Shown: positions 9,381 through 49,260 of the stretch, in pieces
Numbering within the stretch: position 1 is the stretch's first letter
Layout: every line of letters begins with the position of its first letter
Source: Sulfurovum sp.
GTDB lineage: Bacteria > Campylobacterota > Campylobacteria > Campylobacterales > Sulfurovaceae
NCBI GenBank assembly: GCA_027062365.1
Contig: JAMOTK010000066.1
Coordinates: 12,782 to 76,781 of the forward strand
DNA: 64,000 nucleotides
Reading direction: 5' to 3'
Notes under the pieces: generated by a model
Database searches by the model: none
Told to the model about the DNA's origin: nothing
Seen by the model: only the letters and a program-made list of their open reading frames with translations
Made by a program: the position numbers and the translations under genes

Positions 9381-11027
9381 ATGGAAAATAAAAAAGAATA
9401 TCAAGTCATTAATATTGCAGGAACACTTGCAAAAGGATTTTTAAAAAGTCCTCTTACAGCTGTTTTGGGTGCATTTTTACTTATTATGGGTTATTTAGCA
9501 TTAAATACAATGCCTAGAGAAGAAGACCCTCAAATTGCTATCTCAGGAGGTGCTGTTATTGTACCATTACCTGGTGCGACACCTAAAGAGATTGAAAATA
9601 TTATTGTAAAACCACTAGAACGTAAACTGCGAGAAGTCCGTGGTATTGAGCATGTATATGGTATGGCTATGGATAATGTGGGTATTGTGAATGTTATGTA
9701 TTATATTGGAGAAGATAGAGAAGATTCCAATCTAAAGCTTTATGATAAAGTGATGCAAAATATGGATTCTATGCCAAAAGGGGTAATGCAACCACTGATT
9801 AAACCTTTTGATATAGATATAGATATTCCTATTCTTACTGTTGCTTTTTATCCAAAAGCAGATAAACAAGTAGATGATATTTCTCTTTTTGAAATGGTCA
9901 GAGAAGTCCAACAACATATTAATGCTGTAGAGTATGTGGCTAAGACAACGCTTAAAGGCGCAAGAAAAGCACAATACAATATTGAAGTTGATATGGGAAA
10001 ACTATCAGCGTATCATCTCTCTTTGGGTCAAATTATGCAAGCCGTACAATCGGTGGCTGTTGATGTACCTGATGTTAAAGGTAAAACCAATAGTGGTAAG
10101 TTGGTTATCTTTGGTGTAAAAAATGCGATAGAGAGTGTAGAAGATGTAGGTTCTGTGATTGTTGCACAATATATGAACTCACCTATTTATCTACGTGATG
10201 TAGCAAGTGTGACACATGGTATCGATATACAAAACTTTCAAACAGCTAAGATTATGTTTAAATCAGATGTCAACGATACTCTGAGTAAAGAGGCGAATCA
10301 AATTACGATGACTGTAGCAAAATTAGCTGGAACAAATGCTGTTTTTGTAGCTGAAGATGTTGTAAAAGTATTAGAATCATATCAAAAAGATTTTGATGAT
10401 TTAGGGATTGGATACCTAATTACTAGAAACTATGGTGAACGAGCCAATGAAGCCGTCAATGAATTGATGAGTCATTTGCTTATTACTATTATTATTATTG
10501 CATTGATGTTGGTATTTGCTTTAGGGTGGAGGGAATCTTTGATTGTTACTTTTTCTGTACCAGCTATTTTGGCTTTTACACTCTTTACAGCATGGATGAC
10601 AGGACAAACGATGAATAGGATTACTTTATTTGCCTTACTTCTCTCCTTGGGATTACTAGTTGATGCTGCTATTATTGTGATTGAAAATATCCATAGGCAT
10701 CTACATGCTCATGGTGTAGAAGACAAAAAGATGGAAGATTTACTTATTGAAGCAACGGATGAGATTGGGGCACCTACCAATATTGCGACATTGGCTATTA
10801 TCTTAACGATGGTACCTATGGCATTTGTGGGTGGTATGATGGGGTCATTTATGAAGCCTATCCCTTATAACGTACCTGTAGCACTGGTGGCTTCTTTGTT
10901 TGTCGCCTATATTTTTACCCCTTATTTGAGTTTAAAGTTATTAAAAAAACCTGAACATAAACCTAATAATGAAGAAGATGAGAATCATAAAATAGAAAAT
11001 AATGAAATGAAAGAAGGAAAAAAATAA
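9381..11027 (+). CDS. RND efflux permease, N-terminal half (TM1, porter loop, TM2-6)
   Basis: AcrB-like N-terminus (LKSPLTAVLGAFLLIMGYLALNTMPREEDPQIAISGGAVIVPLPGATPKEIE) and TM bundle (LLLSLGLLVDAAIIVIENI). It ends in a hydrophilic tail, KPEHKPNNEEDENHKIENNEMKEGKK. Confidence 0.85.
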   Translation: MENKKEYQVINIAGTLAKGFLKSPLTAVLGAFLLIMGYLALNTMPREEDPQIAISGGAVIVPLPGATPKEIENIIVKPLERKLREVRGIEHVYGMAMDNVGIVNVMYYIGEDREDSNLKLYDKVMQNMDSMPKGVMQPLIKPFDIDIDIPILTVAFYPKADKQVDDISLFEMVREVQQHINAVEYVAKTTLKGARKAQYNIEVDMGKLSAYHLSLGQIMQAVQSVAVDVPDVKGKTNSGKLVIFGVKNAIESVEDVGSVIVAQYMNSPIYLRDVASVTHGIDIQNFQTAKIMFKSDVNDTLSKEANQITMTVAKLAGTNAVFVAEDVVKVLESYQKDFDDLGIGYLITRNYGERANEAVNELMSHLLITIIIIALMLVFALGWRESLIVTFSVPAILAFTLFTAWMTGQTMNRITLFALLLSLGLLVDAAIIVIENIHRHLHAHGVEDKKMEDLLIEATDEIGAPTNIATLAIILTMVPMAFVGGMMGSFMKPIPYNVPVALVASLFVAYIFTPYLSLKLLKKPEHKPNNEEDENHKIENNEMKEGKK

Positions 11028-12754
11028 TGAAGGGTTTTGAAAAATTTATTTATAATATCCTAGATAGTAAATATAAAAAGAAATTAATAATATCCTTAAC
11101 TGCGATAGCTTTTTTTCTCTCACTAATGATGTTTCCTACCAAAATGGTTTTGGCAAAAATGCTACCAGGGAAGAGTGCAAATACCTTTTCTATCTATGTT
11201 GATACCCCTGCGGGTTCTTCTATTGAACAGACTAAACAAGTAAGTTCTTGTGTACTCAATTATCTAAAAAAAGAAAATGAAGTCATGAATATTGAACTCT
11301 TCTTAGGGCAAGGTATTCCTCTTGATTATGCTGGACTGGTCAAAGGTGCAAGTATGAAACGTACAGAAAATGTTTCAGAAATTTCTGTAAACCTTACGGA
11401 TAAACATCATCGAACGGAAGCATCTTATCTTATGGTACAACGTTTAAGACCATTGATACAAGAATCATGTCTCCCTTTAGTGAGGGGTACAAATATCAAA
11501 TTTATTGAACAACCTTCAGGACCTCCTACTTTAGCATCTATTGTAGTAGAAGTACATGGAGAAAACCTATCTCAAATTAGATCTTTAGCTGTGGATGTTG
11601 CTAATACGCTTTCCAATACCGAAGGGTTGGTAGATATTGATATTATGGCAGATGAAAATTTTGAAAAATATGAATTAATTCCAGATAAAGAGAAAGTAGC
11701 TAGATCAGGATTAAGTGTAAAACAGGTCAATAATATTTTATACCTTGCATTTGAGGGTATGGTAATTGCACATAAAAATTCTCAAAATTCACCAGATCAG
11801 ATTAATATGTTTTTAGTACTAGATAATGCAAGTAAACAATTACCTGAATCAAATATAGAAGCCTTAAAGAGTAAGCTCTCTTCACTTAATCTTATGAATA
11901 TGAGAGGTATGATGGTACCATTGTCTGAAGTAGTAGATATTAGAGAAGCGAAATCTAATTATATGATTATGCATAAAGACCTTTCTCGTATGACCAATGT
12001 GATTGCTGAGACCGATATGGTTTCACAAGTCTATCCTCTTTTAGAAGCACGTGAGGTATTATTGGAGAAATTTGAGAATGATTATATCATCACAAAAGCA
12101 GGATTTTCTACGTATATGTTTGACTTTACTTTAGAAGATAGAAAAACACATGCTAAGTATCTGATTCGTTGGGATGGAGAAATGAAAGTGACCTTAGATA
12201 CTTTTAGGGACTTAGGAGGAGCATTTATATCAGCATTGATACTTATCTTTCTTTTATTAGTAATATACTATAAAAGTTTTGCTATTTCAGGTATTGTACT
12301 TTTGGGTTCTTTTCTCTCGCTTATTGGTGTTATCGTAGGGCATTGGGTTGCCAATTGGTTTACAACGGAAACTTTCTTCCTTACATCAACTTCTTTAATT
12401 GGATTTATTGCTCTGATTGGTATCTCTTCACGTAACTCATTGCTCTTGATAGACTTTGCAAAGTCTCTCATGGAGTGTGAAGGTATCCAAAAACGTCATT
12501 CGATAGCGATAGCAGCAGCTACAAGGGCAAAACCTATTATGTTGACAGCTGTGGCAATTATCTTGGGTTCTGCCTTACTAGCAGGAGATCCTGTCTTTGG
12601 TGGTTTGGGTGTTGCCCTTATTTCGGGTACCGTAGCTGCCGTTTTTGTATCATTATTGTTTGTTCCTGTTTTGATGGACAACTCTAAAGCTATGGATTTT
12701 GATAAAAAATATTGCGATAATGAAGCGTTGAAAAATATCTCTATTACAAAATAA
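11027..12754 (+). CDS. RND efflux permease, C-terminal half (TM7, porter loop, TM8-12)
   Basis: Starts in a TAATG overlap with the previous ORF, preceded by GAAGGAA. It has TM7 ([17 protein letters not shown]), a large loop and the conserved [18 protein letters not shown]-type TM10-11 region. Confidence 0.85.
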
Positions 12755-13484: not shown

Positions 13485-16469
13485 TTATAAGAGCGATTCT
13501 TTTAGTTTCTTTGCTATCTCATCAGACTTTATCCCTAAGGGAAAGGCTTCAAAACAATCTTCAGCTTCATTACTATCACCTAATATAGCAAATGGTTTAG
13601 CACCACTATCTCTGATAATATCAGCTACCATACATTTGATTTCTCTAAAAGGCTCTATATCATAGATAACAAAAGTATATGTTTCTTCATCGACCTTATT
13701 TAAAAATAAATTTTCATCTGAAATTATATCAATAGTATATCCTAGGCTTTCTAACATACCTTTATAGATATTTGAGATTAAAGATACAGAATGGTAGAGT
13801 AATATATCATAGTTTTGAGTTACCTCTTTATTATATTCTTCTATCTTTGTATCAGAAGAAAAATATTGTTGCAAGATTAAACTTAGCTTTTCAAGATCTA
13901 AAGGTTTGGACAAGTAATTGTCCATACCAGCATCAATATATTTTTCTCTATCTCCTGCTAATGCATTGGCTGTAAGTGCAATAATAGGAATGTGACGTTT
14001 ACGTTGGGTCTCTTCATAATGCAAAATTTCTTTGGTCGCTTCTATCCCACCCATAACAGGCATTTGTATATCCATGAATATAAGGTTGTATTGATTCATC
14101 TGACGAAGATTTAACGCTTCTTCTCCATTGTTAGCCAATGTAACATTGAGTCCAAAACCATGAAGGACATGCATAATTAGTTTTTGGTTGATACTATTAT
14201 CTTCTGCCACTAAAACATGCTTATTCTCAAAAGTAAGCTTAGGTGCTTTTAATGCTACTTTTACTTTTTTTGTACTTTGTAATACTTCTAATGATTTTAA
14301 TGTTTTAGTAAGATTGACTGGTTTGTAGAGTATTTTATCTATTTTATCTTCCAAGCCTTCAATACGTCTTTTTTTATCATTTGTAAGCATGACAATAATT
14401 TTTGTATCAAGATCTAGATATTTTTCTAATTCACCTTCTCTTTGGTAATATTTTTGATCAATAAAGAGTACAGAAGGGAGTACTGTAGGTAAGTTATCTG
14501 CAAGGATAATATCACTTTTTGCATCTGTGTATTCTATATAGTTCATAAGGTTACTATTTGTTTCTGTATCTACTATGGTATTAGGAAGTAGTAGTCCTAT
14601 GCTATATTTGGACATGTCTATCTCTTCTCTAGGGACACTACTTTTATCCTTTTCAAGATTTATAGTAAAATAAAAAGTAGCACCTTTCCCTTCGATACTT
14701 TCTATTTTAAGTTTTCCACCCATAATAGCAGTGAGTTTGGAAGAAATAGCTAAACCTAGTCCTGTACCACCAAATTTTCTACTAGTACTTACATCAGCTT
14801 GAGAAAAGGCTTCAAATATTTTGTCTTGTTGTTCCATAGTGATACCAATACCTGAATCATGTACAGAAAATCTAATAGTAGTATATTTCGTACTTTCTGC
14901 AATCTTAACTATTTGTACATTGACGGAACCTTTTTCAGCAGTAAATTTAATTGCATTGGAGATAAGATTAACAAGAATTTGAGAAATTTTAGTAGGGTCA
15001 CCGACAATAGTTTTTGGCAATTCTGGGTCAATAAAAATACCAAATTCAACATTTTTTTCTGCTGCTCTTGCTGCATAAGATTCAATCGCTGATTCAAATT
15101 TTTCAACAGGGTCAAACGCTATATGTTCTAGTTCTATTTTCTCTGCTTTAATTTTGGAAAGGTCTAAAATATCATTTACAATAGTCAATAAATTATCAGA
15201 GCTATTTTCTATTACCGTAATAAACTCTTCTTGTTCTTCTGTGGTTGCTGTAGATTTAAGTAATTGAGTAAACCCCACAATACCATTGAGAGGTGTTCTG
15301 ATTTCGTGAGACATATTGGCTAAAAATAAATCTTTGGCTTGATTGGCATCTTTGATTGTGGTTGTTAAAAATCTATATATATTATTAATCTCTTGTTTCT
15401 CTATCAGTAATTTTAATTCTGTTTGTTGTTCTGGGCTTAATACTAATTCGATATCTTTGAGTGTATTTTCAAAAAGTTTTTTCTCTCTACTGATATTATA
15501 ATAGATAATCCATAAAATAAATAGTAATATAAATGCCAAAAATACCATGATAGCATAACGTATCATAGTAGTTTTTATCTCTGCTTCACTTTTTGTAATA
15601 TATATTTGTACTTCAGTACTTAGTAAAGATTGCGATGCTTCATAAAAAATTATTTTTTTCTCTACTTGTGTAAACCATTCTTTAAGTGTAATTGTATACT
15701 TACCATCTAAACTGCCATAGAGCAATTGAACACGTTCTTTTTCACTTAGTGTATAAAATAATTCTGAAGACATAAGTGCTATAATCCCACGTTGTGTTTT
15801 TTGGTTTAAGTTCTGATAAGAAGGTAAAATATCAGAGACCACTAGAGTATTCCATAACGTTAAATCTTCATCTGTCATTTTTTTTGAAGCACTTAATACA
15901 AAAGTAATAATTGTGTTTTCTGCTGCTGTATATTCTTTTAGTTTAGAAAATTTTTGAAAGATAGATAATGAAGATTTTATATGAGGTGTATTTTCTATTT
16001 TAATGATTTTATCCATAATATCCACTAAAGCAAGTGATATTTTTTGGTGATAAAGTGTATATAAAATATTACGATAATCTATACTCATAGAGTCAATTTT
16101 ACTTCGTACATCTTTTAAATGTATTTGAATTTCTTCAAGTAGTTTAGTATATGTATTGAAATTTGATTTAAGTTGAAGTAATGTTTCCACATCTTTGATT
16201 GCTTTATCGGCTACTTCTCTAGACTTTTTGACTTTTTTAAATCCAATTTTACCTTCTGTTCCTAAATATAGTGAAGCATTTAGACTCTCATTATGTATGG
16301 CATTTAAAGCTGTATTTAGTTTTTTGCTTATATAAAGACTGTCTTCACTTGTCTTTGTAAGGGAGTATTTTATAGAGGCTAAATATGTATAATACGAAAG
16401 TCCAGCAATGGTGCTTATGACTATTAGCATAAATAGAATCACAATATTCTTAGTATTGAAAAATTTCAT
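13485..16469 (-). CDS. Hybrid sensor histidine kinase with a ~280-aa NIT-like periplasmic domain, HisKA, HATPase, one canonical receiver and two receiver-like domains
   Basis: TM1 IVILFMLIVISTIAGLSYYTYLA and TM2 AIMVFLAFILLFILWIIYY. H-box FLANMSHEIRTPLNGI; N/G boxes NLISNAIKFT and GGTGLGLAIS. Receiver VLVAEDNSINQ...IFMDIQMPVMGG...ALTANA. The periplasmic AIHNESLNASLYLG ... LKDVRSKID resembles the NIT domain. Confidence 0.85.
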   Translation of the reverse strand: MKFFNTKNIVILFMLIVISTIAGLSYYTYLASIKYSLTKTSEDSLYISKKLNTALNAIHNESLNASLYLGTEGKIGFKKVKKSREVADKAIKDVETLLQLKSNFNTYTKLLEEIQIHLKDVRSKIDSMSIDYRNILYTLYHQKISLALVDIMDKIIKIENTPHIKSSLSIFQKFSKLKEYTAAENTIITFVLSASKKMTDEDLTLWNTLVVSDILPSYQNLNQKTQRGIIALMSSELFYTLSEKERVQLLYGSLDGKYTITLKEWFTQVEKKIIFYEASQSLLSTEVQIYITKSEAEIKTTMIRYAIMVFLAFILLFILWIIYYNISREKKLFENTLKDIELVLSPEQQTELKLLIEKQEINNIYRFLTTTIKDANQAKDLFLANMSHEIRTPLNGIVGFTQLLKSTATTEEQEEFITVIENSSDNLLTIVNDILDLSKIKAEKIELEHIAFDPVEKFESAIESYAARAAEKNVEFGIFIDPELPKTIVGDPTKISQILVNLISNAIKFTAEKGSVNVQIVKIAESTKYTTIRFSVHDSGIGITMEQQDKIFEAFSQADVSTSRKFGGTGLGLAISSKLTAIMGGKLKIESIEGKGATFYFTINLEKDKSSVPREEIDMSKYSIGLLLPNTIVDTETNSNLMNYIEYTDAKSDIILADNLPTVLPSVLFIDQKYYQREGELEKYLDLDTKIIVMLTNDKKRRIEGLEDKIDKILYKPVNLTKTLKSLEVLQSTKKVKVALKAPKLTFENKHVLVAEDNSINQKLIMHVLHGFGLNVTLANNGEEALNLRQMNQYNLIFMDIQMPVMGGIEATKEILHYEETQRKRHIPIIALTANALAGDREKYIDAGMDNYLSKPLDLEKLSLILQQYFSSDTKIEEYNKEVTQNYDILLYHSVSLISNIYKGMLESLGYTIDIISDENLFLNKVDEETYTFVIYDIEPFREIKCMVADIIRDSGAKPFAILGDSNEAEDCFEAFPLGIKSDEIAKKLKESLL

Positions 16470-16483
16470 TTTTATTGATCCCT

Positions 16484-17242
16484 TTATTGGTGTTTACTAT
16501 GATAAAGTGCTAATTTATTGACTAATACTTCTATGTTCTTAACCGAAGAAAATAAAAGTATAGGAATAAAAAGTTTTTTATATTTTTTGATAAATATTTT
16601 ATCTTTTTTCCAAAGGTTACTTAACTCTTTACGCTTTCCAATGAGTTGATGTGGATAGTTATAGCTCGTTAGAATACTTAAATTTTTTTCTAGTTTACTG
16701 ATACTTTCTATAAGCATTTCATTGTTTATTTTATTATCAAATCCTGAGCATAATATAATGTAGTATTTAAGTGTCCTTTGAAGAAGATACTCTACTTGTT
16801 TGGTAACCATAATCATCTGTTCTTCATTGGAAAAATCATACTTAGCATCTTGGGCAATAGAGCCTATCCCTTCTAAAAGGGTCTCACTATAGTCAATCAG
16901 TAAAGAAGCATTTTCAAGTGAATATTTTTTACTAAAAATATCTGCCATTTCATTTTTATTATAAGAAAGAAATTCTAATATATCTTTTGTATCTGTCTCT
17001 TTGCTTGTTAGAGCAATAGTTCTAAAGTTTTCACTTAATGCATCTAATGCAGAAGAGAGTTTCTTTTTTACCTCTACTCTTTGAGGATAATTATAGTGTA
17101 GAAAATAATCCTTTACAATCGTTTGACTTAAGTAGCGAATATTTTCTGATGCTTCGATAATTTTGACATCACCTCTTGTAGCAGCATAAAGATTAATAGT
17201 CATGAGTGGAAGAAGAACACATAGCTGAAATAATCGGGTCAT
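16484..17242 (-). CDS. Periplasmic two-lobed helical protein; degenerate paralogue of the double PilJ/P-box family
   Basis: Signal peptide MTRLFQLCVLLPLMTINLYA. The positions equivalent to the P-box read ASENIRYLSQTIVKDYF and VTKQVEYLLQRTLKYYI. It shares length and layout with the neighbouring paralogues. Confidence 0.55.
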   Translation of the reverse strand: MTRLFQLCVLLPLMTINLYAATRGDVKIIEASENIRYLSQTIVKDYFLHYNYPQRVEVKKKLSSALDALSENFRTIALTSKETDTKDILEFLSYNKNEMADIFSKKYSLENASLLIDYSETLLEGIGSIAQDAKYDFSNEEQMIMVTKQVEYLLQRTLKYYIILCSGFDNKINNEMLIESISKLEKNLSILTSYNYPHQLIGKRKELSNLWKKDKIFIKKYKKLFIPILLFSSVKNIEVLVNKLALYHSKHQ

Positions 17243-17251
17243 GTTGTTTCC

Positions 17252-18058
17252 TTATTTATACAGTTCTACATACAAATGCGTGACTGCATTCATTTTTTTA
17301 GTAATATCATCACTAGAATTAAAGACAATCAGTGGTAGACCACCTTTTTCTATATTAAGATAAAATTTGTAAACAATTTTCCAAAGTCTATTGACTTTAT
17401 TAAGATTTTTATTGATTTCAGGGGTATTTGTTTGATTGGCTAAAAGTACTTTGTGTGTTTTAGAGAAGAGTGCTACAGCTGTATTCATCTGTTCGACAGT
17501 ATTTTTATCTTTAATACCTGACTGGTATGCTATATAGTATTTAGCAATACGTTGTGCCAACATACGTTGTCTTCCTGCTATTTCAATAATATTTGACTCT
17601 TGTACGGTAATAGTCTCTTTGAGAGAATCTACTACATATTGGCTACCTTCTAGCATAGATTCACTCAAGTCAATAATAAGTTGAGCATTATCAAGACTGA
17701 AAGGTTCATTTGCAGTAAGTTCAAAATCTTCAGTACCCATCTCAACAAAGGCTAAAAGATTTTTTATATCTTCATCATTGATTGCAGCAACTAGTTTTTT
17801 ATGTGAAGCTGTAAGTTCTAATATGGATTGTTTCAATTGTTTATTGGCTTTGGATGTGGCTACTTTTCTACCTGCATAAAGATAATCTTTTGCAATTCTT
17901 TGAGAAAGCATTCTTTGTTTGCCTGCAATATTTATAAGCTTCATTGTGTCAGTAATTACAGCAGGATTAGAAGAAGCTTCTTTTGCTCCTATGGTAGTAC
18001 TTCCTAGTATGAGTGCTAAACTACAGATACTAACGATTGTTTTTAGATTATTATTCAT
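17252..18058 (-). CDS. Periplasmic protein made of two PilJ-N/NarX-P-box-type sensor modules, with no TM or output domain
   Basis: Signal peptide, then IAGKQRMLSQRIAKDYLY and IAGRQRMLAQRIAKYYIAY. I prefer the ATG at 18058 (RBS AAGGGA), which lies 1 nt past the upstream gene's stop (18060-18062). The track's start is 18073. Confidence 0.7.
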   Translation of the reverse strand: MNNNLKTIVSICSLALILGSTTIGAKEASSNPAVITDTMKLINIAGKQRMLSQRIAKDYLYAGRKVATSKANKQLKQSILELTASHKKLVAAINDEDIKNLLAFVEMGTEDFELTANEPFSLDNAQLIIDLSESMLEGSQYVVDSLKETITVQESNIIEIAGRQRMLAQRIAKYYIAYQSGIKDKNTVEQMNTAVALFSKTHKVLLANQTNTPEINKNLNKVNRLWKIVYKFYLNIEKGGLPLIVFNSSDDITKKMNAVTHLYVELYK

Positions 18059-18059
18059 G

Positions 18060-18818
18060 TTATTTCCCTTCATTTATATAAGTTTGTGTTATTTTTTCAA
18101 TTTCTTGATGAATTTGTGTTGTCTTCTTGTAAATTAGTGTTGGAATAAATTTACTTTTAGAACGGTTCATCATCTCGAAAAATTTAAAAGAACGCATGAC
18201 AGCTTTAATTTTTTTCTTATTACTCTTTGTGGTTTGAGAACTATTTAGCATTTTATGGAGTGAATTATTAAAAAATGTGATACTCTCTTTCATTTTGAAA
18301 TTAAATTTAGGATCAGATATCCCCCATGTCTTCATCATGTAAAGTGCAGCCATTCTCTCAATAATTACACCTTGATATCCTGCAATACTTACAATGTCAT
18401 GTTTTGATTCTTTATCTTTTGACAAAAGTACATTCATGAGTATACTCATCTCTTGAAGTATTTTATCAGTCTCTTTTTGTAATACTAAAGTTTTGTCTTT
18501 TGCAGGCTTATTATGAAAGTCTTTTTCAATCGTATTCCATATCATCTGAGCATTTTCTAATGCTTCTTTAGACTTACTGTCTTCAAATGTACCTTTTAGT
18601 GATGTAAAACTTTTTGTGTACGCTGTAAGATATCTTTTTAGTTTACCCTTAGAGTCTTTAAAATTATTACCCATACCTAAAAAAGAGTATTCTTTAAGTA
18701 TTTGTTGGAGTAAAACTTTTTGTTGATTGACGGCATTGATCATGGATTTATCTACTTTTGCATTCACTGTAGAAGCCAAAACAATTGTTATTAGTATCGT
18801 CTTTAGTATATGTATCAT
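18060..18818 (-). CDS. Periplasmic two-lobed helical protein; degenerate paralogue of the double PilJ/P-box family
   Basis: Signal peptide MIHILKTILITIVLASTVNA. The motif positions read VNQQKVLLQQILKEYSF and IAGYQGVIIERMAALYMMKTWGISD. Its C-terminal half aligns with 19890-20672 (FFEMMN.S..KFIPTLIYKK). Confidence 0.55.
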   Translation of the reverse strand: MIHILKTILITIVLASTVNAKVDKSMINAVNQQKVLLQQILKEYSFLGMGNNFKDSKGKLKRYLTAYTKSFTSLKGTFEDSKSKEALENAQMIWNTIEKDFHNKPAKDKTLVLQKETDKILQEMSILMNVLLSKDKESKHDIVSIAGYQGVIIERMAALYMMKTWGISDPKFNFKMKESITFFNNSLHKMLNSSQTTKSNKKKIKAVMRSFKFFEMMNRSKSKFIPTLIYKKTTQIHQEIEKITQTYINEGK

Positions 18819-18828
18819 TGCTTCTCCT

Positions 18829-19821
18829 TTACTTTGGTATATTTGGTTGTTTAATATCTGGTTTTCTACCTTCTAAGGCTTTGAAAAAAGCAATAAGGTT
18901 GTTGATGTCATCTTCATCAATTTCTGTTACCGAGAGTTGAATACGTGACATTTCTTTGATAGCATCTTTTAACTTTGGAACTGTTCCGTTGTGAAAATAA
19001 GGTGCATTTAATGTAACATTTCGTAAAGAAGGTACTTTTACTAATCCATTTTTGTCTCCTGTAAAATCACCTACATCTTTAAACTTAAATTCATTGGCTA
19101 TGGCAAAGGGTTGCATAGACCCACCTATGGCTACCCCTGTATGACAGTTGATACATCCTCTATCTATAAAGATAGAAAGACCTTTTTTCTCTTGTGCATT
19201 GAGGGCATTATTTTTACCATTGAGAAAATCATCAAAACGTGATGGTGTAATTAATGTACGTTCAAAAGCTGCAATGGCTATAGCTATTTGTTTAAAAGTG
19301 ATTTTGACATTCTTTCCATACGCTTTTTTAAATGCTTTGACATAGACAGGTACCTTTGTGATACGCTCAACAGCAAGTTCAGGTGTCATACCCATTTCAA
19401 ATGGAGCTAACATTGGACCTTGGGCTTGGTCTTCTAGGTCGGGGCTTCTCCCATCCCAAAATTGATGTTCAAACAAAGATGCATTATAAACAGTAGGTGA
19501 GTTTAGATGGTGAGGATTTTTTGCTCCACCTATCCCTATAGCAACACTTAGTCCATCAGCCCCACCTTGGGTCAAATCATGACAACTTGCACAGCTAATT
19601 GTCTGGTCTTTTGAGAGCCTTGTATCAAAAAAAAGTTGTTTCCCTAAAGCTATTCTATCTTTGGTTAAAACTTTTTTAGGGTCAATGAGTTTATAAAGTT
19701 CTTTTTTACTGCTAGGAATTGGTTTAAGTCCTGCTCTTTTTACACTTTGTTCTAAATTTTCTTCTGCTACTAGTATCCATGGCATCAGAAGTAGTAACGT
19801 AAGATATGGTACTTTTTTCAT
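18829..19821 (-). CDS. Di-haem cytochrome c peroxidase (CCP/MauG family)
   Basis: Signal peptide, two haem c sites (CASCHD and CINCHTG), then the conserved FWDGR and PSLRNV..T.PYFHNG motifs. Confidence 0.88.
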   Translation of the reverse strand: MKKVPYLTLLLLMPWILVAEENLEQSVKRAGLKPIPSSKKELYKLIDPKKVLTKDRIALGKQLFFDTRLSKDQTISCASCHDLTQGGADGLSVAIGIGGAKNPHHLNSPTVYNASLFEHQFWDGRSPDLEDQAQGPMLAPFEMGMTPELAVERITKVPVYVKAFKKAYGKNVKITFKQIAIAIAAFERTLITPSRFDDFLNGKNNALNAQEKKGLSIFIDRGCINCHTGVAIGGSMQPFAIANEFKFKDVGDFTGDKNGLVKVPSLRNVTLNAPYFHNGTVPKLKDAIKEMSRIQLSVTEIDEDDINNLIAFFKALEGRKPDIKQPNIPK

Positions 19822-19889
19822 TTATATCCTTCTTTTAATATTATTATTTAAGTATATCGCATTCTTATACTAAAATTCCTAAATATAGG

Positions 19890-20672
19890 CTATTTATTCT
19901 CTTCTTTAACATAAAGACCTGTAACTGTATTCATATCTTTCAAAATATCATTTGATTTTTTATAGATTAACGTAGGTATAAACTTTGTTGTAGATTTATT
20001 CATCATTTCAAAAAACATAAATGACTTTTTAGATTTGAGAAGTAAAATGCGAATTTTATCTGTATTCATACTAGAAGCGAGTAGTTTTTCTTGAGAGGTT
20101 TTAAACAGTGCTAATGCTTTTGTCATCTTATCCTTAAATTGAAGGTCATTAATACCCCATACTTTGAACATATAAAGACTAGCCATTCTCTGAGAGAGCA
20201 TTCTTTGTCTCCCTGAGATATTGATAATCTCACCAGAAGCTTTACCTGTTTGTTTTGCAAAAAGTTGTGTGGCATCATTGGCTTGTTTGAGTAAGGTTTC
20301 TAAGTCTTCTTGCATTTTACCTGCATTGGCTTTAGTAGGTGTCTTGCTTAAGGATAGTTTGATGGGTATCCACAGTGTTTGAACCTTGAGGAGGCTCTCA
20401 TCTGTGAGGGTGTCTTTATTAAAAACAATAAGAGCATTTAAATGCTCTTCAAATAAATATATAATCTTTTTTAAGTCTTCTTCAGGGGTTCCAAAAGCAT
20501 TTCCTAATCCTACCATGGCATAATCTTTTAACATATGTTGTGTAAACATTCTTTGTTTTCCTGCTACATCAACTGCATGTGCTATATCTTTTACCTCAAA
20601 GGCATGAGTAGAGCTAAAAAATATAGTAAAGATAAAAAGTAGTGGTATAGATTTGATACGTATTATTTGCAT
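19890..20672 (-). CDS. Periplasmic protein made of two PilJ-N/NarX-P-box-type sensor modules
   Basis: Signal peptide MQIIRIKSIPLLFIFTIFFSSTHA, then VAGKQRMFTQHMLKDYAM and ISGRQRMLSQRMASLYMFKVWGIND. Confidence 0.65.
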   Translation of the reverse strand: MQIIRIKSIPLLFIFTIFFSSTHAFEVKDIAHAVDVAGKQRMFTQHMLKDYAMVGLGNAFGTPEEDLKKIIYLFEEHLNALIVFNKDTLTDESLLKVQTLWIPIKLSLSKTPTKANAGKMQEDLETLLKQANDATQLFAKQTGKASGEIINISGRQRMLSQRMASLYMFKVWGINDLQFKDKMTKALALFKTSQEKLLASSMNTDKIRILLLKSKKSFMFFEMMNKSTTKFIPTLIYKKSNDILKDMNTVTGLYVKEENK

Positions 20673-20753
20673 AATTTTCCTTTAGAATATATTATTCTAT
20701 TCTAAAGTATATTAATCATAGGTTAGAATGTATCAGATAAGTCATTTTAATGA

Positions 20754-22043
20754 TTATTTTTTCTTCTTTTTCCTAAAGACACGCTTGGCATCTTTGACTA
20801 TTGCATCAGGTATGGTTGCAATAGTCATGAACTCAGACATTTGAAGTAGAGGATACATATAAGAGATATAAAATTTAGGGTCAAGGATTTTTGCTTTGCC
20901 ATTTTGGATAACGACAGGGTAGGGTAACATTGCCGCATTGTTTCTACCAATCTTTTTTATAAATTTACGTGTTCTTTTCCCTAATTTGATACCAATAAGC
21001 GTTGCACCATTTTCTAATGTTTGTGTAAAGAGTACTTTTTTATTCTTTTTTATTCTTTCTAGTAAATCATCAGCAGATGCAATCTCAATCATATCTTGGT
21101 ACTGAGGCATACTCTTCATAAATTGGTAGCTAGGAAGTAATTGAAACTTCAAACTGTCTTTAGAGTTTTTTAAGTTAGGAAAGAGTGTTGTGATTTGTAT
21201 CAAAAGTTCTGTTGCTTCTTTTTTATTAAAATCATTTTGTAAAAACCCTTTTGCCATATAGAGTGGATTGGTAATACTAATGATTTTTTCTTTTGTATCC
21301 ACTAAAATACGTAGATTAGCCATAAACGCTCTGTTAGGCTTACTAGATAACGTTATCAGTGCTTTATTTGTAAAAACAATAGAGATAAGTGTAGATTTTT
21401 TATTGATAGGGGTAGAGGTGAGGAGTGTAAATCCAGCAGATTTTAGTTTGCTTTCTATCTCAGATACTTCCATATACGCACCACGTAAATAAGCAGAAAT
21501 TATACTACCATTTACTTCTCCAACAAGAGCAGTTTTTGATGTTTTTTCTTTTTTGATATTGTCAAATGGATGGGCAACATAATTAGGTGGGGTACGTTTT
21601 GCAAACTTAATAGCTCGGTTATTATTATGTATACTATCTTTAAAATGTATCGCTTTAGGTGGAGTTGGTACGGTAGGTATCTTTATTTCAACGATATGAT
21701 TGAGTATTTTAAATTTCTGTACATTTTGTTCGGGCTTAATACTGGATTCTAAAGTCTTAGAAACTACTTCTACTTTTTTATTGGATTTAGATATTTTAGA
21801 TATCGAAGGAGAATCTTTTTTTGTTAACTTTTCTTTAGCCAAGGCAGTATAGCCTTTTTGAATATCACTATCTATGTTATGAAGTATAGCTAATGAAGGC
21901 TCATCTGAAAGGTTTGAATCTACTTTTTGTGCTTCTATAAAGTTCGTAAATAATACGAATGTAAGGGAAGTGACCGATAGAAATTTTATAATTGTTTGCA
22001 ATATATATCCTTTAAAACTAGTAATAAAACCATAGATTAACAT
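20754..22043 (-). CDS. Hypothetical exported or membrane-anchored protein, with weak resemblance to DUF302 folds in its C-terminal two thirds
   Basis: 429-aa ORF with an N-terminal hydrophobic segment (FLSVTSLTFVLFTNFIEA) and a K-rich linker. Segments such as VSEIESKLKSAGFTLLTS...LISIVFTNK are the weak match. The start codon is uncertain. Confidence 0.4.
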   Translation of the reverse strand: MLIYGFITSFKGYILQTIIKFLSVTSLTFVLFTNFIEAQKVDSNLSDEPSLAILHNIDSDIQKGYTALAKEKLTKKDSPSISKISKSNKKVEVVSKTLESSIKPEQNVQKFKILNHIVEIKIPTVPTPPKAIHFKDSIHNNNRAIKFAKRTPPNYVAHPFDNIKKEKTSKTALVGEVNGSIISAYLRGAYMEVSEIESKLKSAGFTLLTSTPINKKSTLISIVFTNKALITLSSKPNRAFMANLRILVDTKEKIISITNPLYMAKGFLQNDFNKKEATELLIQITTLFPNLKNSKDSLKFQLLPSYQFMKSMPQYQDMIEIASADDLLERIKKNKKVLFTQTLENGATLIGIKLGKRTRKFIKKIGRNNAAMLPYPVVIQNGKAKILDPKFYISYMYPLLQMSEFMTIATIPDAIVKDAKRVFRKKKKK

Positions 22044-22187: not shown

Positions 22188-22958
22188 TTAGTCTGAGATA
22201 GTTTTTACAGAGTCATTTGTATTATCAGAAACTGATTTTACAGATGCTGCTGAATCAGTTGAAATAGTTTTAACTGTATCACTTACATTTGTATTTGTAG
22301 ATTCTACAGAAGCTCTACTATCAGTTGAAACAGTTTTAACTGTATCATTAGCATTTGTTGCTACAGAGTTTACAGAATCTTTTGAATCAGTTGAGATTGA
22401 TTTTGTTGTACTATTCATATCATTAGCAATAGTTTTTACAGAATCTGAACTATCATTAGAAACAGTTTTCATAGTATCGTTAGCATTTGTAGAAACAGTT
22501 TTTACAGAACCTGTAGAGTCATTAGAAATAGTTTTTACAGAAGCTGTTGCATCCGTTGAGATTGTTTTAAGAGAATCTTTAACATCTGTACTAATTACTG
22601 TACCACTATCTTTTAAATCAGCAGTTGTTGTCTTAAGAGAATCTTTGGCATCTGTTGAAATTTTGCTTGTACTTGTAGAGATGTCTTTTGTTGTATTTAC
22701 TTCCATTGTTTTGATGTCATCGGAAACTTTGATAGAAGTATCTTTTGCATCAGCACTTACAGAAGTTACTGTTCTCTCAGCAGACTTAGAAGTCTCAACT
22801 GCACCATCTTTAATAGCTGAAACACTATCTTTAGCATCTTTACTCATAGAAACAGCAGCATCTTTCATATCTGTAAACATATCTCCGAAGCTAAAGTCAG
22901 CTTGGACTGTTGTGAGTAATGTAGCTGATGCTACAGTTGCCATAATTATTTTTTTCAT
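22188..22958 (-). CDS. Secreted Ser/Thr/Asp-rich protein built of 11-residue repeats (paralogue 1)
   Basis: Signal peptide MKKIIMATVASATLLTTVQA, then about 20 hendecads of the type S.D..DSVKTV. RBS and terminator are present. Confidence 0.7.
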   Translation of the reverse strand: MKKIIMATVASATLLTTVQADFSFGDMFTDMKDAAVSMSKDAKDSVSAIKDGAVETSKSAERTVTSVSADAKDTSIKVSDDIKTMEVNTTKDISTSTSKISTDAKDSLKTTTADLKDSGTVISTDVKDSLKTISTDATASVKTISNDSTGSVKTVSTNANDTMKTVSNDSSDSVKTIANDMNSTTKSISTDSKDSVNSVATNANDTVKTVSTDSRASVESTNTNVSDTVKTISTDSAASVKSVSDNTNDSVKTISD

Positions 22959-23069: not shown

Positions 23070-23906
23070 TTATTTTGTGCTTGTCGTTGTCGTTGTTGTT
23101 GCTTTTTCTTTTGCTTTCATGTGTGCGGCATATTCATCAGAAGAGATAGTCTTCGTAGAATCATTTACATTTTCTGAAACAGTTTTAACAGAAGCAGAAG
23201 CATCTGTAGAGACAGTTTTAGCAGTTGCAGAAGCATTTGTATTTGTAGATTCTACTGATGCTCTTGAATCATTAGAAATAGTTTTAGCAGAGTCATTTGC
23301 ATTAGTAGATACTGAATTTACAGAATCTTTAGTATCAGCTGAAACAGTTTTAACAGAAGCAGAAGTATCGTTAGAAACAGTTTTAACAGAAGAAGAAGTA
23401 TCATTAGATACAGTCTTAGCAGTATCACTTACAGAATCACTTACACTCTTAACAGAAGCAGTTGAATCGTTAGAAACAGTTTTAACAGCGTCAGTTGTAT
23501 CTTTAGAAACAGCAATTGCAGAATCTTTCATCTCTTTAGAAGCAACAGTTGCAGAATCTTTAAGGTCTTTTGTTGTATTTGTCATAGCATCTTTAGTATC
23601 TGTAGATACAGAAACTACAGTATCTCTAGTGTCCGTTGATGTTGCTACTTCAGCAGTTTTAAGGTCATCTGAAACTTTAACAGAAGTGTCTTTTGCATCA
23701 GCACTTACAGAAGTAACTGTTCTTTCAGCAGACTTAGTTGTCTCAACAGCACCATCTTTAAGACTTACTACAGAATCTTTTGCATCTTTACTCATAGAAA
23801 CAGCAGCATCTTTCATATCTTTGAACATATCGCCAAAGTCGAAGTCAGCTTGTACACTTGTAAGTAATGCTGCTACTGCAACAGAAGTTTTAATTATTTT
23901 TTTCAT
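23070..23906 (-). CDS. Secreted Ser/Thr/Asp-rich hendecad-repeat protein (paralogue 2) with a unique C-terminal tail ...SSDEYAAHMKAKEKATTTTTTSTK
   Basis: Signal peptide MKKIIKTSVAVAALLTSVQA with RBS AAGGGA. Its first 246 aa are identical to paralogue 3. Confidence 0.7.
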   Translation of the reverse strand: MKKIIKTSVAVAALLTSVQADFDFGDMFKDMKDAAVSMSKDAKDSVVSLKDGAVETTKSAERTVTSVSADAKDTSVKVSDDLKTAEVATSTDTRDTVVSVSTDTKDAMTNTTKDLKDSATVASKEMKDSAIAVSKDTTDAVKTVSNDSTASVKSVSDSVSDTAKTVSNDTSSSVKTVSNDTSASVKTVSADTKDSVNSVSTNANDSAKTISNDSRASVESTNTNASATAKTVSTDASASVKTVSENVNDSTKTISSDEYAAHMKAKEKATTTTTTSTK

Positions 23907-24143: not shown

Positions 24144-24914
24144 TTAGTCGTTGATAGTTTTAGCAGAGTCATTTGCATTTTCTGAAACAGTTTTAACAGA
24201 AGCAGAAGCATCTGTAGAGACAGTTTTAGCAGTTGCAGAAGCATTTGTATTTGTAGATTCTACTGATGCTCTTGAATCATTAGAAATAGTTTTAGCAGAG
24301 TCATTTGCATTAGTAGATACTGAATTTACAGAATCTTTAGTATCAGCTGAAACAGTTTTAACAGAAGCAGAAGTATCGTTAGAAACAGTTTTAACAGAAG
24401 AAGAAGTATCATTAGATACAGTCTTAGCAGTATCACTTACAGAATCACTTACACTCTTAACAGAAGCAGTTGAATCGTTAGAAACAGTTTTAACAGCGTC
24501 AGTTGTATCTTTAGAAACAGCAATTGCAGAATCTTTCATCTCTTTAGAAGCAACAGTTGCAGAATCTTTAAGGTCTTTTGTTGTATTTGTCATAGCATCT
24601 TTAGTATCTGTAGATACAGAAACTACAGTATCTCTAGTGTCCGTTGATGTTGCTACTTCAGCAGTTTTAAGGTCATCTGAAACTTTAACAGAAGTGTCTT
24701 TTGCATCAGCACTTACAGAAGTAACTGTTCTTTCAGCAGACTTAGTTGTCTCAACAGCACCATCTTTAAGACTTACTACAGAATCTTTTGCATCTTTACT
24801 CATAGAAACAGCAGCATCTTTCATATCTTTGAACATATCGCCAAAGTCGAAGTCAGCTTGTACACTTGTAAGTAATGCTGCTACTGCAACAGAAGTTTTA
24901 ATTATTTTTTTCAT
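24144..24914 (-). CDS. Secreted Ser/Thr/Asp-rich hendecad-repeat protein (paralogue 3)
   Basis: Identical to paralogue 2 for 246 aa, then ends ...ANDSAKTIND. Confidence 0.7.
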   Translation of the reverse strand: MKKIIKTSVAVAALLTSVQADFDFGDMFKDMKDAAVSMSKDAKDSVVSLKDGAVETTKSAERTVTSVSADAKDTSVKVSDDLKTAEVATSTDTRDTVVSVSTDTKDAMTNTTKDLKDSATVASKEMKDSAIAVSKDTTDAVKTVSNDSTASVKSVSDSVSDTAKTVSNDTSSSVKTVSNDTSASVKTVSADTKDSVNSVSTNANDSAKTISNDSRASVESTNTNASATAKTVSTDASASVKTVSENANDSAKTIND

Positions 24915-25187: not shown

Positions 25188-25598
25188 ATGAAAAAGATTT
25201 TTATAAGTTGTATAACTCTAGTGACTATCACTCTAGCAGATGATTATACCCAAGCTAATAGAATACTAGATATGCAAAAAATGGCACAAGCGATGCAAGA
25301 TATACAATCTGGATTTTTTTATAATAATCCAGATATAGTCAAGGCAGGGGCTGAAGACCTTAAAAAAGCAGTACTCACCATACGTGCTACAACTGAAGAA
25401 ACCAATGATAAAGATGTCTATGAAAGATGGCTCAATAATAATACAGCCATGACAAAACGGGTACAGAGAAATATAGCAAGAAAAACAGATGTTATTATAA
25501 AGCGTTTTGCAGATGGTGATCCTACACAAGCACTACAAGAATATAGCAAAATTACAAAAGAATGTATGAAATGTCATATTAGTTTAAGAAAATGGTAA
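25188..25598 (+). CDS. Class II c-type cytochrome (cytochrome c'/c-556-like four-helix bundle)
   Basis: 136 aa with a signal peptide and a single CxxCH 8 residues from the C-terminus (ECMKCHISLRKW). Predicted all-helical; a paralogue of 26494-26889. Confidence 0.65.
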   Translation: MKKIFISCITLVTITLADDYTQANRILDMQKMAQAMQDIQSGFFYNNPDIVKAGAEDLKKAVLTIRATTEETNDKDVYERWLNNNTAMTKRVQRNIARKTDVIIKRFADGDPTQALQEYSKITKECMKCHISLRKW

Positions 25599-25606
25599 GG
25601 ATAAGC

Positions 25607-26398
25607 ATGAAAAAAATAATAATTGTAGCATTATTACTCAATGTATGGGTACAAGCGAGTGATATTACACTTACAGGAACCGTTGTCTCTGATGGTCAAA
25701 AGATGATTGGTAGCCGTTATATGGGATATGTTAAAAAAGTATTTGTACGTATAGGTGATAAGGTAGAGCGTGAAGATGACCTCTATGAAATGGAATCAGC
25801 TGAGTTTGATATGATGAAGTCTCAAGCAGATTTAATGCTAGAACAATCTAAAATTATTTTAGAGTATTGGCGTGAAAAACTACGTAAAATAAATATAAGA
25901 AGAGCAAAATCTAAAAATAAAGATGTCAAAGAGATAGATATTGCAGATATGGTAGACTTAGATGCACAAGCAGCCAATATGGAAACGATGCTAGAATCTA
26001 TGCAAATCATGGTAAAAGAAGCCAATATCAAAGCTAAGCAAATGTCTAGTACCTATAACTATATTAAAATGAAAGCACCCTCAGCTGGTGTGGTTGTCCA
26101 AAAAAATATTAAAGTAGGTGATATGATTATGCCTGGTATGCTTACTATTATGATAGTAGATACAGAAAATTTAGAAATTCAAGTTTCTATTTCTGAGAGT
26201 ATTATCTCTAAAGTAAAAGTAGGCAAAAAAGTACCTGTGCATATTCCATCTATTGGGTATAAGACAATGGGTATCATTCATGCTATTGTCCCTGATGCAA
26301 ATCCTATGACGCATAAGATTAAAATGCGTATCCGTTTTGATAGAGGTCAAGACAATATATTCCCAGGGATGTATGCTAAAGTGACTATTAAAGATTAA
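25607..26398 (+). CDS. Orphan efflux adaptor (MFP/HlyD family), paralogue of 8578-9375
   Basis: Aligns end to end with the RND-operon adaptor: LTGTVVSDGQKMIGSRYMGYVKK vs LSGSVVSDNQKMLTSRYMGYVKH, and NPMTHKIKMRIRF...FPGMYAKVTIK vs NPMTHKFKIIMRL...YPGMYAKILIK. I prefer the ATG at 25607; the track's 25592 overlaps the cytochrome stop. Confidence 0.75.
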   Translation: MKKIIIVALLLNVWVQASDITLTGTVVSDGQKMIGSRYMGYVKKVFVRIGDKVEREDDLYEMESAEFDMMKSQADLMLEQSKIILEYWREKLRKINIRRAKSKNKDVKEIDIADMVDLDAQAANMETMLESMQIMVKEANIKAKQMSSTYNYIKMKAPSAGVVVQKNIKVGDMIMPGMLTIMIVDTENLEIQVSISESIISKVKVGKKVPVHIPSIGYKTMGIIHAIVPDANPMTHKIKMRIRFDRGQDNIFPGMYAKVTIKD

Positions 26399-26493: not shown

Positions 26494-26889
26494 ATGAAAA
26501 AAGTTTTATTATCAGTGGTACTTTTAAGTGGAGTACTTTTTGCACAAGAACATATCCAACCAGATAGAATGAAAAATATGCAAGAGATGGAAACAGCATT
26601 ATCAACCATACAAAAAGGTTTTTTATTTAACAATCTTAATGTGGTAAAAAATGGTGTCAAAGACCTTAAAGTAACAGCAATGCATACAGAATCTTTTATT
26701 AAAGAGGGTGTCAATAAAGAGGGATTTAATACTTTAGTGTACGCTAAAAAACAAGCCAAAGATATTACAGCACTTTCATCCAAAATTTTGAGTAGTTTTG
26801 AAAAAGGTGATAGATATGGCGCGGCCAATCATTATCTACAAATTCTTAGTAAATGTCTTTCATGTCACCAAACAGTGAGATCTTGGTAA
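26494..26889 (+). CDS. Class II c-type cytochrome (cytochrome c'/c-556-like), paralogue 2
   Basis: 131 aa with a signal peptide and C-terminal KCLSCHQTVRSW. It shares IQ.GF..NN...VK.G..DLK with 25188-25598. Confidence 0.65.
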   Translation: MKKVLLSVVLLSGVLFAQEHIQPDRMKNMQEMETALSTIQKGFLFNNLNVVKNGVKDLKVTAMHTESFIKEGVNKEGFNTLVYAKKQAKDITALSSKILSSFEKGDRYGAANHYLQILSKCLSCHQTVRSW

Positions 26890-29305: not shown

Positions 29306-30253
29306 TTGAGTCAAATTATAGAAAATATCAAAACAGAAATTGCAAAAGTGCTTGTCGGGCAAGATAAGATGGTGGAGGGATTACTCGCTGGACTTCTTTG
29401 TCGTGGGCATATACTTTTAGAAGGTGTCCCTGGACTTGCCAAAACTACAGCCGTAAATGCTTTGGCAAAAACACTAGGGCTGGACTTTAAACGTGTACAG
29501 TTTACACCTGATTTATTGCCTTCGGATATTATAGGGACAGAGATTTATGACCCTTCTAATAATTCCTTTAAAATCAAACAAGGTCCTATTTTTACCAATT
29601 TACTTTTGGCTGATGAAATTAACCGAGCCCCTGCAAAAGTACAATCTGCACTATTGGAAGTGATGCAAGAGAGACAAGTGACTATTGGTGATGAAACTTT
29701 TAAAATTGATTTGCCATTTTTGGTGATGGCAACACAAAATCCTGTAGAACAAGAGGGTGCGTATGAACTACCTGAAGCACAATTAGATAGATTTATGATG
29801 AAGATAGTCGTGGGCTATAATACCAAAGAAGAAGAGCTAGAAATTGCTCGACGTGTAGCCAACAATAGCTTTGAGAAGATAGAACAAGTCGCTACGCTTG
29901 ATGACCTTGATACGATTCGTAAAGAAGCCTTAGCCGTGCATATTGACGAAGAGGTAGAACAGTATATTATAGAACTCGTCTCTGCCACACGTGACCCTAA
30001 ATCGTATGGACTAGAAGAGCTAGCAGCGTATATTGAGTTTGGTGCAAGTCCTAGGGCTAGTATTGATATGTACAAAGCCTCACGGGCGATGGCATACCTA
30101 AAAGGGCAAGATTTTGTCTCGCCTATGGAGATAGCATATATTGCCAAAGAGATACTACGTCACCGTATTATTTTGTCTTATGAAGCACAAGCAGAAGAAG
30201 TGACTACAGATGAGATTATCGAGAAAATTTTATCTGCCGTTCCTATTCCTTAG
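29306..30253 (+). CDS. moxR: MoxR-family AAA+ ATPase
   Basis: Walker A GVPGLAKT, Walker B LLADEINRA, then ATQNP.E.EG.Y.LPEAQLDRF. TTG start per the track. Confidence 0.9.
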   Translation: MSQIIENIKTEIAKVLVGQDKMVEGLLAGLLCRGHILLEGVPGLAKTTAVNALAKTLGLDFKRVQFTPDLLPSDIIGTEIYDPSNNSFKIKQGPIFTNLLLADEINRAPAKVQSALLEVMQERQVTIGDETFKIDLPFLVMATQNPVEQEGAYELPEAQLDRFMMKIVVGYNTKEEELEIARRVANNSFEKIEQVATLDDLDTIRKEALAVHIDEEVEQYIIELVSATRDPKSYGLEELAAYIEFGASPRASIDMYKASRAMAYLKGQDFVSPMEIAYIAKEILRHRIILSYEAQAEEVTTDEIIEKILSAVPIP

Positions 30254-30262
30254 GGTATTGAT

Positions 30263-31093: not shown

Positions 31094-31096
31094 GTC

Positions 31097-32399: not shown

Positions 32400-32400
32400 G

Positions 32401-49145: not shown

Positions 49146-49260
49146 GGGATACAATGACCTTACTAATGATAATTTACAATTTTTATAGTATAGCATAATC
49201 ATCTAGTATAAATGACTTTGTGGTTATAATATTTGTCATAAACAATAGAGGAATGTAACG

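Follow-up and report, generated by a model that had tools for sequence, protein, structure and literature searches.

The stretch of DNA analysed here, referred to below as the window, spans 64,000 nucleotides (nt) of Sulfurovum sp. (GenBank assembly GCA_027062365.1, contig JAMOTK010000066.1, positions 12,782 to 76,781) and harbours a compact set of six minus-strand genes. They encode four small, putatively secreted proteins, A to D (hereafter the solo proteins), a di-haem peroxidase and a hybrid histidine kinase. The list of open reading frames (ORFs) of the window contains these six tightly packed genes as a preliminary description of the sequence had delineated them, and C may start at 18073 instead of 18058. 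From the first gene to the last, they are:

19890-20672, minus strand: A, predicted secreted double-PilJ protein, 260 amino acids (aa)
18829-19821, minus strand: peroxidase (CCP), canonical bacterial di-haem cytochrome c peroxidase, 330 aa, with CASCH and CINCH
18060-18818, minus strand: B, predicted secreted paralogue of A, 252 aa
17252-18073, minus strand: C, predicted secreted double-PilJ protein, 273 aa, with an alternative in-frame start at 18058
16484-17242, minus strand: D, predicted secreted, diverged paralogue of C, 252 aa
13485-16469, minus strand: hybrid histidine kinase, 994 aa, with a periplasmic NIT sensor

Along the operon, the gaps from A to the kinase measure 68, 10, -14, 9 and 14 nt. 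From the CCP gene through the kinase gene, neighbours are spaced by -14 to 14 nt, a translational coupling that counts in favour of the reading developed below. According to it, A and C would be soluble oxyanion co-receptors, D would be an adaptor docking to a kinase whose NIT domain is often ligand-blind, and CCP and B would be accessory. We consider this reading to be evenly poised between right and wrong.

A scan of species-representative genomes identifies 208 relatives. The best 78 loci were examined; all are from Campylobacterota, mostly from Sulfurovum and Nitratifractor-type metagenome-assembled genomes (MAGs), together with the complete genome of Sulfurovum sp. CS9 (NZ_CP180410), in which the cassette has the form A-A'-C-D-kinase. 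In scripted annotation, the order C-D-NIT-kinase is kept in essentially all of the ~80 loci with enough flanking sequence, and the genomic contexts in which it stands include at least three that are unrelated. A-type, A-type, C, D, NIT-kinase, with no peroxidase, is the order on three long contigs whose flanks are unrelated, and some contigs carry two cassettes in tandem. The A-type slot is variable, as zero, one or two such genes stand ahead of C in the relatives. In locus L009, which lacks A, the order is 429-aa protein gene, CCP, B, C, D and kinase, the gene directly upstream of CCP encoding a homologue (72% identity) of the 429-aa protein encoded upstream of A in the window. Synteny thus designates C-D-kinase as the invariant core of the cassette, and the A genes and the CCP-B pair as its variable parts. 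The association of free-standing, secreted PilJ/NarX-type relatives with a NIT hybrid kinase, proposed in the preliminary description, is borne out by this conserved order. The quadruplication that it reported holds for the window, where four paralogues are found, but is lineage-specific, since relatives carry two to four solo genes. Likewise, co-occurrence across relatives holds for C, D and the kinase, but not for the peroxidase, which is missing from most cassettes.

At its N-terminus, each solo protein has a hydrophobic stretch whose last residue is small (THA, VNA, IGA or LYA), and reading their sequences by eye reveals neither a Cys nor a lipobox. With these signal-peptide-like N-termini, A to D are predicted to be secreted, and they appear to have no output domain. 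The Pfam PilJ model (PF13675, gathering cut-off 26.6 bits) recognises two stretches in both A (53.3 bits, E = 3.4e-14) and C (74.6 bits, E = 8.3e-21), whereas B stays under the cut-off (17.5 bits) and D has no Pfam match at all; none of the solo proteins has a Pfam NIT match. The N-box for nitrate defined in the study of McpN reads [IVL]-[ND]-x-A-G-x-Q-R-M-L-[ST]-Q (PMC6381276). A contains two N-box-like G-x-x-R motifs, VDVAGKQRMFTQ (20538-20573) and INISGRQRMLSQ (20190-20225), both matching at 11 of the 12 positions. In C, lobe 1 harbours an exact match at all 12 positions, INIAGKQRMLSQ (17900-17935), and lobe 2 a match at 10 of 12, IEIAGRQRMLAQ (17552-17587). Searched in six frames, the window yields no more than four matches at 10/12 or better, and these lie in A and C, while B and D score 7/12 at most. 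The preliminary description had all four proteins opening with AG(K/R)QRML and named them double P-box proteins. This is accurate for A and C, with an N-box in both lobes, but B and D are diverged paralogues with other motifs. Motif conservation was assessed across about 75-80 orthologues per class: the Arg of the box is kept in 90-100% of the A-type and C orthologues, in both lobes, the A-type values being 90-95%. These near-invariant G-x-x-R boxes argue for a small-anion site in A and C.

Judged from their sequences, A to D are one paralogous family, related to the PilJ/NarX-type sensor module. A and C are paralogous at E = 3e-24, B and A share 32% identity (E = 2e-42), D matches C at E = 6e-18, and hhalign joins the D and C families with a probability of 99.9% (E = 4.7e-34). 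C is the most conserved member of the solo set; among the 1597 homologous proteins returned for it, the best 120 display ~67-87% identity. The public names of these proteins give the domain only or are plainly wrong labels. The AlphaFold2 model of C (pLDDT 85, pTM 0.81) exhibits eight helices that form two four-helix bundles. Against the Protein Data Bank (PDB), Foldseek ranks the NIT domain of NasR first among full-length matches (4AKK; probability 0.99-1.0, TMq 0.44-0.52, E 0.05-0.07), and a single lobe of C superimposes with Foldseek on the McpN ligand-binding domain with a TMt of 0.79. By sequence profile, the best PDB match of C is the PilJ ligand-binding domain (4e-5), the global fold being poorly matched (TMq 0.27).

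The comparison with these known sensors is instructive as to what A and C may do. In NarX, NarQ and McpN, nitrate is held by the G-x-x-R Arg from each of two protomers, while in NasR two bundles of one chain form an equivalent, asymmetric site (PMC8199190). The NasR NIT domain of Klebsiella oxytoca resembles the model of C in having two four-helix bundles per chain, with an Arg in each first helix needed for the nitrate/nitrite response. It is cytoplasmic and fused to ANTAR, however, whereas the solo proteins are predicted to be secreted, have no apparent output domain and belong to Pfam PilJ rather than NIT. McpN, NarX and NarQ (6GCV, 3EZH) share with A and C the N-box/P-box with its G-x-x-R, but they are single bundles that build their nitrate site as homodimers and are fused through transmembrane segments to a kinase or chemoreceptor; the solo proteins would be tandem bundles, secreted and free. 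The ligand-binding domain of P. aeruginosa PilJ (7ZJR, 8WDF) is a tandem double-PilJ periplasmic module of similar length, but part of a membrane-anchored chemoreceptor, and PilJ lacks the N-box and binds no nitrate (PMC6381276).

The kinase is composed, in order, of a transmembrane segment, a periplasmic NIT domain, a second transmembrane segment, HisKA, HATPase_c, a pseudo-receiver, a receiver and a second pseudo-receiver. These domains lie as follows:

15651-16277 (aa 65-273), minus strand: NIT, Pfam match of 40 bits, E = 7.8e-10
15144-15338, minus strand: HisKA, from Pfam
14652-15002, minus strand: HATPase_c, from Pfam
14280-14603, minus strand: pseudo-receiver
13878-14216, minus strand: receiver
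13491-13805, minus strand: second pseudo-receiver

The NIT sensor anticipated in the preliminary description is thus recognised by Pfam (PF08376, gathering cut-off 24.9 bits), and NIT is also recorded in the kinase orthologues. Pfam detects one receiver in the kinase; the AlphaFold2 model of residues 605-994 (pLDDT 85.7) comprises three beta/alpha domains, and Foldseek ranks full-length ShkA (6QRJ) first for this C-terminal third, followed by GacS D1, PleD and RcsC. A C-terminal Hpt was considered and rejected: Pfam and PDB sequence searches for it are empty and the AlphaFold2/Foldseek analysis returns receiver-like folds. Hpt is absent from the kinase and from its best 120 homologues alike. 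ShkA/RcsC-type hybrid kinases also carry a kinase core, a pseudo-receiver and a true receiver, but the window kinase differs by a further pseudo-receiver at the C-terminus and by its periplasmic NIT sensor. The architecture of NarX and NarQ (P-box bundle, two transmembrane segments, HAMP, kinase) is not found here either, the sensor of this kinase being NIT and not PilJ. Within the 64 kilobases, phmmer finds no second receiver-domain gene. As the preliminary description had noted for Hpt and DNA-binding regulators, neither these nor an N-oxide reductase are found among the ORFs scanned, a few ORFs being unscanned or devoid of a Pfam match.

Two positions of the kinase NIT domain deserve attention. 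E61 and E184 are near-invariant among orthologues; in NasR-type domains an Arg stands after the Glu, and NasR R50 and R176 are required for its response (PMC9581486). In the window kinase, the invariant Glu are followed by S (NE-S) and N (AE-N). The residue after the Glu is an Arg in lobe 1 of 46 of the 77 kinase orthologues and in lobe 2 of 15; both arginines are present in 12 and neither in 28, the window kinase being among the latter. These positions are equated with NasR R50/R176 by the E-R motif only, because the profile search of the PDB with the kinase missed 4AKK. A NIT domain that has lost its ligand arginines would read protein docking and not an anion. The kinase NIT domain was also considered as a fifth solo paralogue and rejected at the sequence level, as BLAST finds nothing and hhalign gives a probability of ~3% with the C family and of 1.6% with the D family. 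To note, a sub-group of loci (L061, 9500-12807, and L047, L049, L052, L057, L060, L063, L066, L073, L074 and L077) encodes instead a NIT protein of ~545-585 aa in which the C-terminus is ATPase-like and no H-box is obvious, and in L061 this gene is followed by that of a methyl-accepting chemotaxis protein. The output side of the cassette therefore varies.

D departs from the N-box. It reads ENIRYL and KQVEYL at the N-box positions, one Arg being kept inside a different motif. Its lobe-1 motif, IEASENIRYLSQ, is conserved across 75 orthologues, while lobe 2 has no box. That D, like B, maintains a distinct conserved motif of its own suggests selected, altered pockets. The relation of D to the kinase was approached by covariation, comparing pairwise distance matrices from 45 loci with a complete single cassette by partial Mantel tests, a statistic of the mirror-tree type. 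The distances of D correlate with those of the kinase's periplasmic domain at r = 0.92; the partial r amounts to 0.78 when the kinase core is controlled for and to 0.83 when C is (p <= 5e-4), and the value is 0.80 among close pairs only. C covaries weakly with this periplasmic domain (0.25) and A not at all (0.006). The D-NIT covariation fits the idea that D docks onto the NIT domain. Recombination blocks could contribute to it since the 5' end of the kinase gene, which codes for the NIT domain, adjoins D, yet C is equally adjacent to D and the C-D covariation is far lower (0.35).

The family extends well beyond the cassette. Its matches at E < 1e-10 form at least 474 clusters at 50% identity, the best 150 being almost all ~260 aa long. 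Secreted fusions of two or three double-PilJ units are also found, 520-760 aa long and with up to five G-x-x-R boxes (P0141, P0152, P0153, P0233, P0237, P0263 and P0267, one of them from an Aureispira MAG). Such natural multi-unit fusions fit the idea of double-PilJ units working together. The fusion loci L010, L094 and L095 are stand-alone and belong to other lineages. In L093 (6226-12282), a divergent minimal cassette encodes a C-like protein, a D-like protein and an 864-aa hybrid kinase, and is directly followed by a REC-GGDEF-EAL gene, which suggests a c-di-GMP output in that lineage; a gammaproteobacterial-type singleton in L012 adjoins a GGDEF gene.

The stand-alone members bring forward a different explanation, in which the solo proteins would be independent periplasmic anion binders, serving as buffer, scavenger or delivery proteins, and would share expression with, or be under the control of, a kinase that does its own sensing. 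Related solo proteins and fusions without a neighbouring sensor in other lineages agree with this, as do the arginines kept in lobe 1 of 46 kinases and in both lobes of 12. It accounts poorly, however, for the strictly kept C-D-kinase order, seen in many contexts with genes that overlap or nearly abut, for the D-NIT covariation and for the 28 kinases devoid of either Arg, and D is hard to explain as a binder because it has no intact box. We hold this explanation to be decidedly unlikely.

In the sub-lineage of the window, the cassette is enlarged by the peroxidase and B. The preliminary assignment of the peroxidase is confirmed by Pfam CCP_MauG (189.8 bits, E = 5.4e-56), with CASCH at aa 77 and CINCH at aa 223. 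Its best PDB matches are 1IQC (2.8e-69), 3O5C and 1EB7, at ~1e-67 to 1e-69, MauG and MbnH reaching only ~2e-26; in NCBIfam, it scores 162 bits against a MauG cut-off of 443.85 and 155.7 against an MbnH cut-off of 362.85. That the peroxidase modifies B in the manner of MauG or MbnH is rejected on these grounds, the enzyme being a canonical CCP far nearer to 1IQC, 3O5C and 1EB7. B itself displays NQQKVL in lobe 1 and GYQGVIIER in lobe 2 at the N-box positions, so that K and G replace both arginines. B-type proteins keep N-x-Q-K-V-L and G-Y-Q-x-V-I-I-E-R down to 52% identity, and this conservation of the replacement motifs indicates that B is a selected variant and not a decaying copy.

The peroxidase gene is found inside the cassette in the window, in the loci closely related to it (L007/L008 and L009) and in L053, L097 and L098, and is absent from the other loci. 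Where present in the cassette it always lies directly upstream of a B-type gene, and B-type genes occur solely beside the peroxidase gene; none of 108 A-type genes outside the sub-lineage of the window adjoins one. A metagenome scan with B yields four loci, all the informative ones showing the CCP-B pairing. CCP and B are an accessory pair limited to the sub-lineage of the window, a lineage-specific insertion. The peroxidase as a core component is rejected by synteny, and the preliminary view of it as integral to the system is not upheld, since it occurs only within this pair.

The peroxidase also bears on a proposal that dispenses with a small ligand: the solo proteins may be helical modulators or chaperones like CpxP or ZraP, inhibiting or tuning the kinase under envelope or oxidative stress, in keeping with the peroxide or N-oxide stress put forward in the preliminary description. 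Helical secreted proteins encoded with a kinase recall CpxP and CpxA (PMC4160245). The peroxidase gene within the operon in the lineage of the window, always paired with B, would suit such a role, as would a peroxiredoxin gene downstream of the cassette in L003. Most cassettes have no peroxidase, though, the near-invariant G-x-x-R boxes of A and C favour a small-anion site, and Pfam reveals no sequence relation to CpxP-type families. We therefore rate this proposal as highly improbable.

The reading stated at the outset, in which A and C bind an oxyanion and D docks, can be formulated as a mechanism. The core module C-D-NIT-kinase would be a periplasmic multi-receptor two-component system. C, and A where present, would be secreted, soluble proteins of two four-helix bundles, each bundle giving one G-x-x-R Arg to a single pseudo-symmetric oxyanion site within one chain, with nitrate or nitrite as the likeliest ligand. 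D, having lost the box, would contact the periplasmic NIT domain of the kinase as an adaptor, and this domain would lack ligand arginines of its own in many lineages, including that of the window. The signal would then exit through HisKA-HATPase-pseudo-receiver-receiver-pseudo-receiver to an Hpt protein or regulator encoded elsewhere. In the sub-lineage of the window, the canonical peroxidase and the re-tooled paralogue B would have been inserted as an accessory pair. We infer the identity of the ligand, the single-chain site, the docking and the direction of regulation from the comparisons above.

As to the ligand, the same architecture might serve another oxyanion, namely sulfite, thiosulfate or tetrathionate, and A, C, D and B may even cover different ligands. 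NarX and NarQ bind nitrite and sulfite too (PMC6381276), Sulfurovum-type bacteria are the hosts, genes for N-oxide respiration are missing from the vicinity of the cassette in the window and in three neighbourhoods, and D and B keep distinct motifs of their own. On the other hand, lobe 1 of C is an exact match to an N-box drawn from nitrate-specific McpN homologues, the G-x-x-R motifs of A and C are almost invariant, and no sulfur-oxidation genes are linked to the cassette either. Another oxyanion is thus an unlikely choice.

Several observations weigh against oxyanion co-receptors docking through D. The Foldseek E-values of the modelled C with NasR (0.05-0.07) are weak, and one Gly and one Arg are gone from C itself in the cassette of L093, a divergent one. 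The correspondence between the kinase and NasR residues would be one of motif similarity only, and the 12 kinases with both arginines could sense directly. The D-NIT covariation can come from shared rate shifts or recombination blocks. The vicinity of the cassette, in the window and in three annotated neighbourhoods, is free of nap, nir, nor and nos genes, and distant members or fusions stand alone, with no sensor nearby, in L010, L092, L094 and L095.

Upstream of A, two further features of the window touch the operon:

20754-22043, minus strand: 429-aa protein, 81 nt upstream of A, candidate first gene of the operon
20680-20707, minus strand: inverted repeat CTTTAGAATA-N8-TATTCTAAAG, perfect over 10 bp, immediately upstream of the ribosome-binding site of A

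The 429-aa protein has no family match in Pfam or NCBIfam, and its gene is absent from the other neighbourhoods (three annotated long contigs). This gene, whose membership is uncertain, may head the operon in a lineage-specific manner. The inverted repeat is a candidate operator or RNA hairpin. In relatives, the region upstream of the first gene of the cassette shows no comparable repeat; a function is consequently unsupported, and a conserved operator upstream of A is rejected. Promoter and terminator scans remain at chance level, and tRNA and Rfam scans of the window have zero matches.

Further upstream, three tandem minus-strand genes (22188-22958, 23070-23906 and 24144-24914) encode secreted proteins with 11-residue (33-nt) repeats of the form KDS..VKT(V/I)S(T/N)D, with a weak apolipoprotein likeness below cut-off (E = 1.8e-4). 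Copies 2 and 3 are 98% identical across 300 nt, which suggests a recent duplication. At higher coordinates, two plus-strand genes (25188-25598 and 26494-26889) encode secreted proteins of ~130 aa with a terminal CxxCH (CMKCH and CLSCH), which bracket a CusB/HlyD-type membrane-fusion gene (25592-26398). These two had been called cytochrome c'-like; the first reaches E = 0.011 only for cytochrome c' and the second has no match. The tie to peroxide or N-oxide stress that the preliminary description had proposed finds no general support, because the cytochrome c'-like and 429-aa genes are not conserved neighbours in most loci.

At the opposite flank of the cassette, an RND (ACR_tran) transporter appears to be encoded on the plus strand by two abutting ORFs (9381-11027 and 11027-12754, of 548 and 575 aa), with OEP and HlyD genes ahead of them. 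It is split likewise in L009 (549 and 574 aa), so that this seems to be a conserved two-gene form rather than a frameshift. Elsewhere in the window lie a Bat-like operon (29306-35649, plus strand; MoxR AAA_3, DUF58, an unassigned ORF, two VWA proteins, a TPR protein and BatD), a type I restriction-modification system (35832-42319; HsdR, HsdS, a nucleotidyltransferase pair and HsdM), two large adjacent minus-strand ORFs without a Pfam match at E <= 1e-5 (44992-49202; 496 and 906 aa), a Fic-domain gene (51162-51845) and a separate C-5 cytosine methylase (52380-53444).

The logic proposed for the cassette resembles that of accessory-protein two-component systems. In TorT-TorS, LuxP-LuxQ, GltB-GtrS, CpxP-CpxA and QseG-QseE, a soluble or tethered periplasmic protein, often encoded next to the kinase gene, signals by binding to the kinase sensor. 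The known ligand-binding partners among these have solute-binding-protein folds, whereas CpxP and QseG are not such receptors; here, two to four paralogous four-helix-bundle modules would play this part beside a NIT kinase. The use of paralogous four-helix-bundle receptors would be the difference. The preliminary description knew of no system with this architecture, and our literature searches likewise come across no account of PilJ/NIT-like periplasmic proteins that stand free, nor of this operon. A wider claim may be ventured tentatively, although we find it doubtful: that the cassette is a new receptor relay, in which diffusible, NIT-like A and C catch the oxyanion, D couples them to a ligand-blind kinase and re-tooled paralogues (B with the peroxidase) add inputs, the wider family then being a new class of soluble four-helix-bundle receptors.

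Nitrate/nitrite sensing is poorly understood in Campylobacterota without NarXL. These bacteria dominate sulfidic vents and seeps, where nitrate is a main electron acceptor. If the reading of A and C as oxyanion co-receptors coupled through D holds true, the PilJ/NarX/NIT module, known only within membrane sensors, would also work as a secreted, stand-alone protein, and a kinase could pass ligand recognition to soluble paralogous receptors. Inputs would then be added or exchanged through gene duplication within the operon. For biosensors, the proteins would be a source of small, soluble scaffolds that bind anions, a use already made of NasR, and a large unannotated protein family would be given a role.

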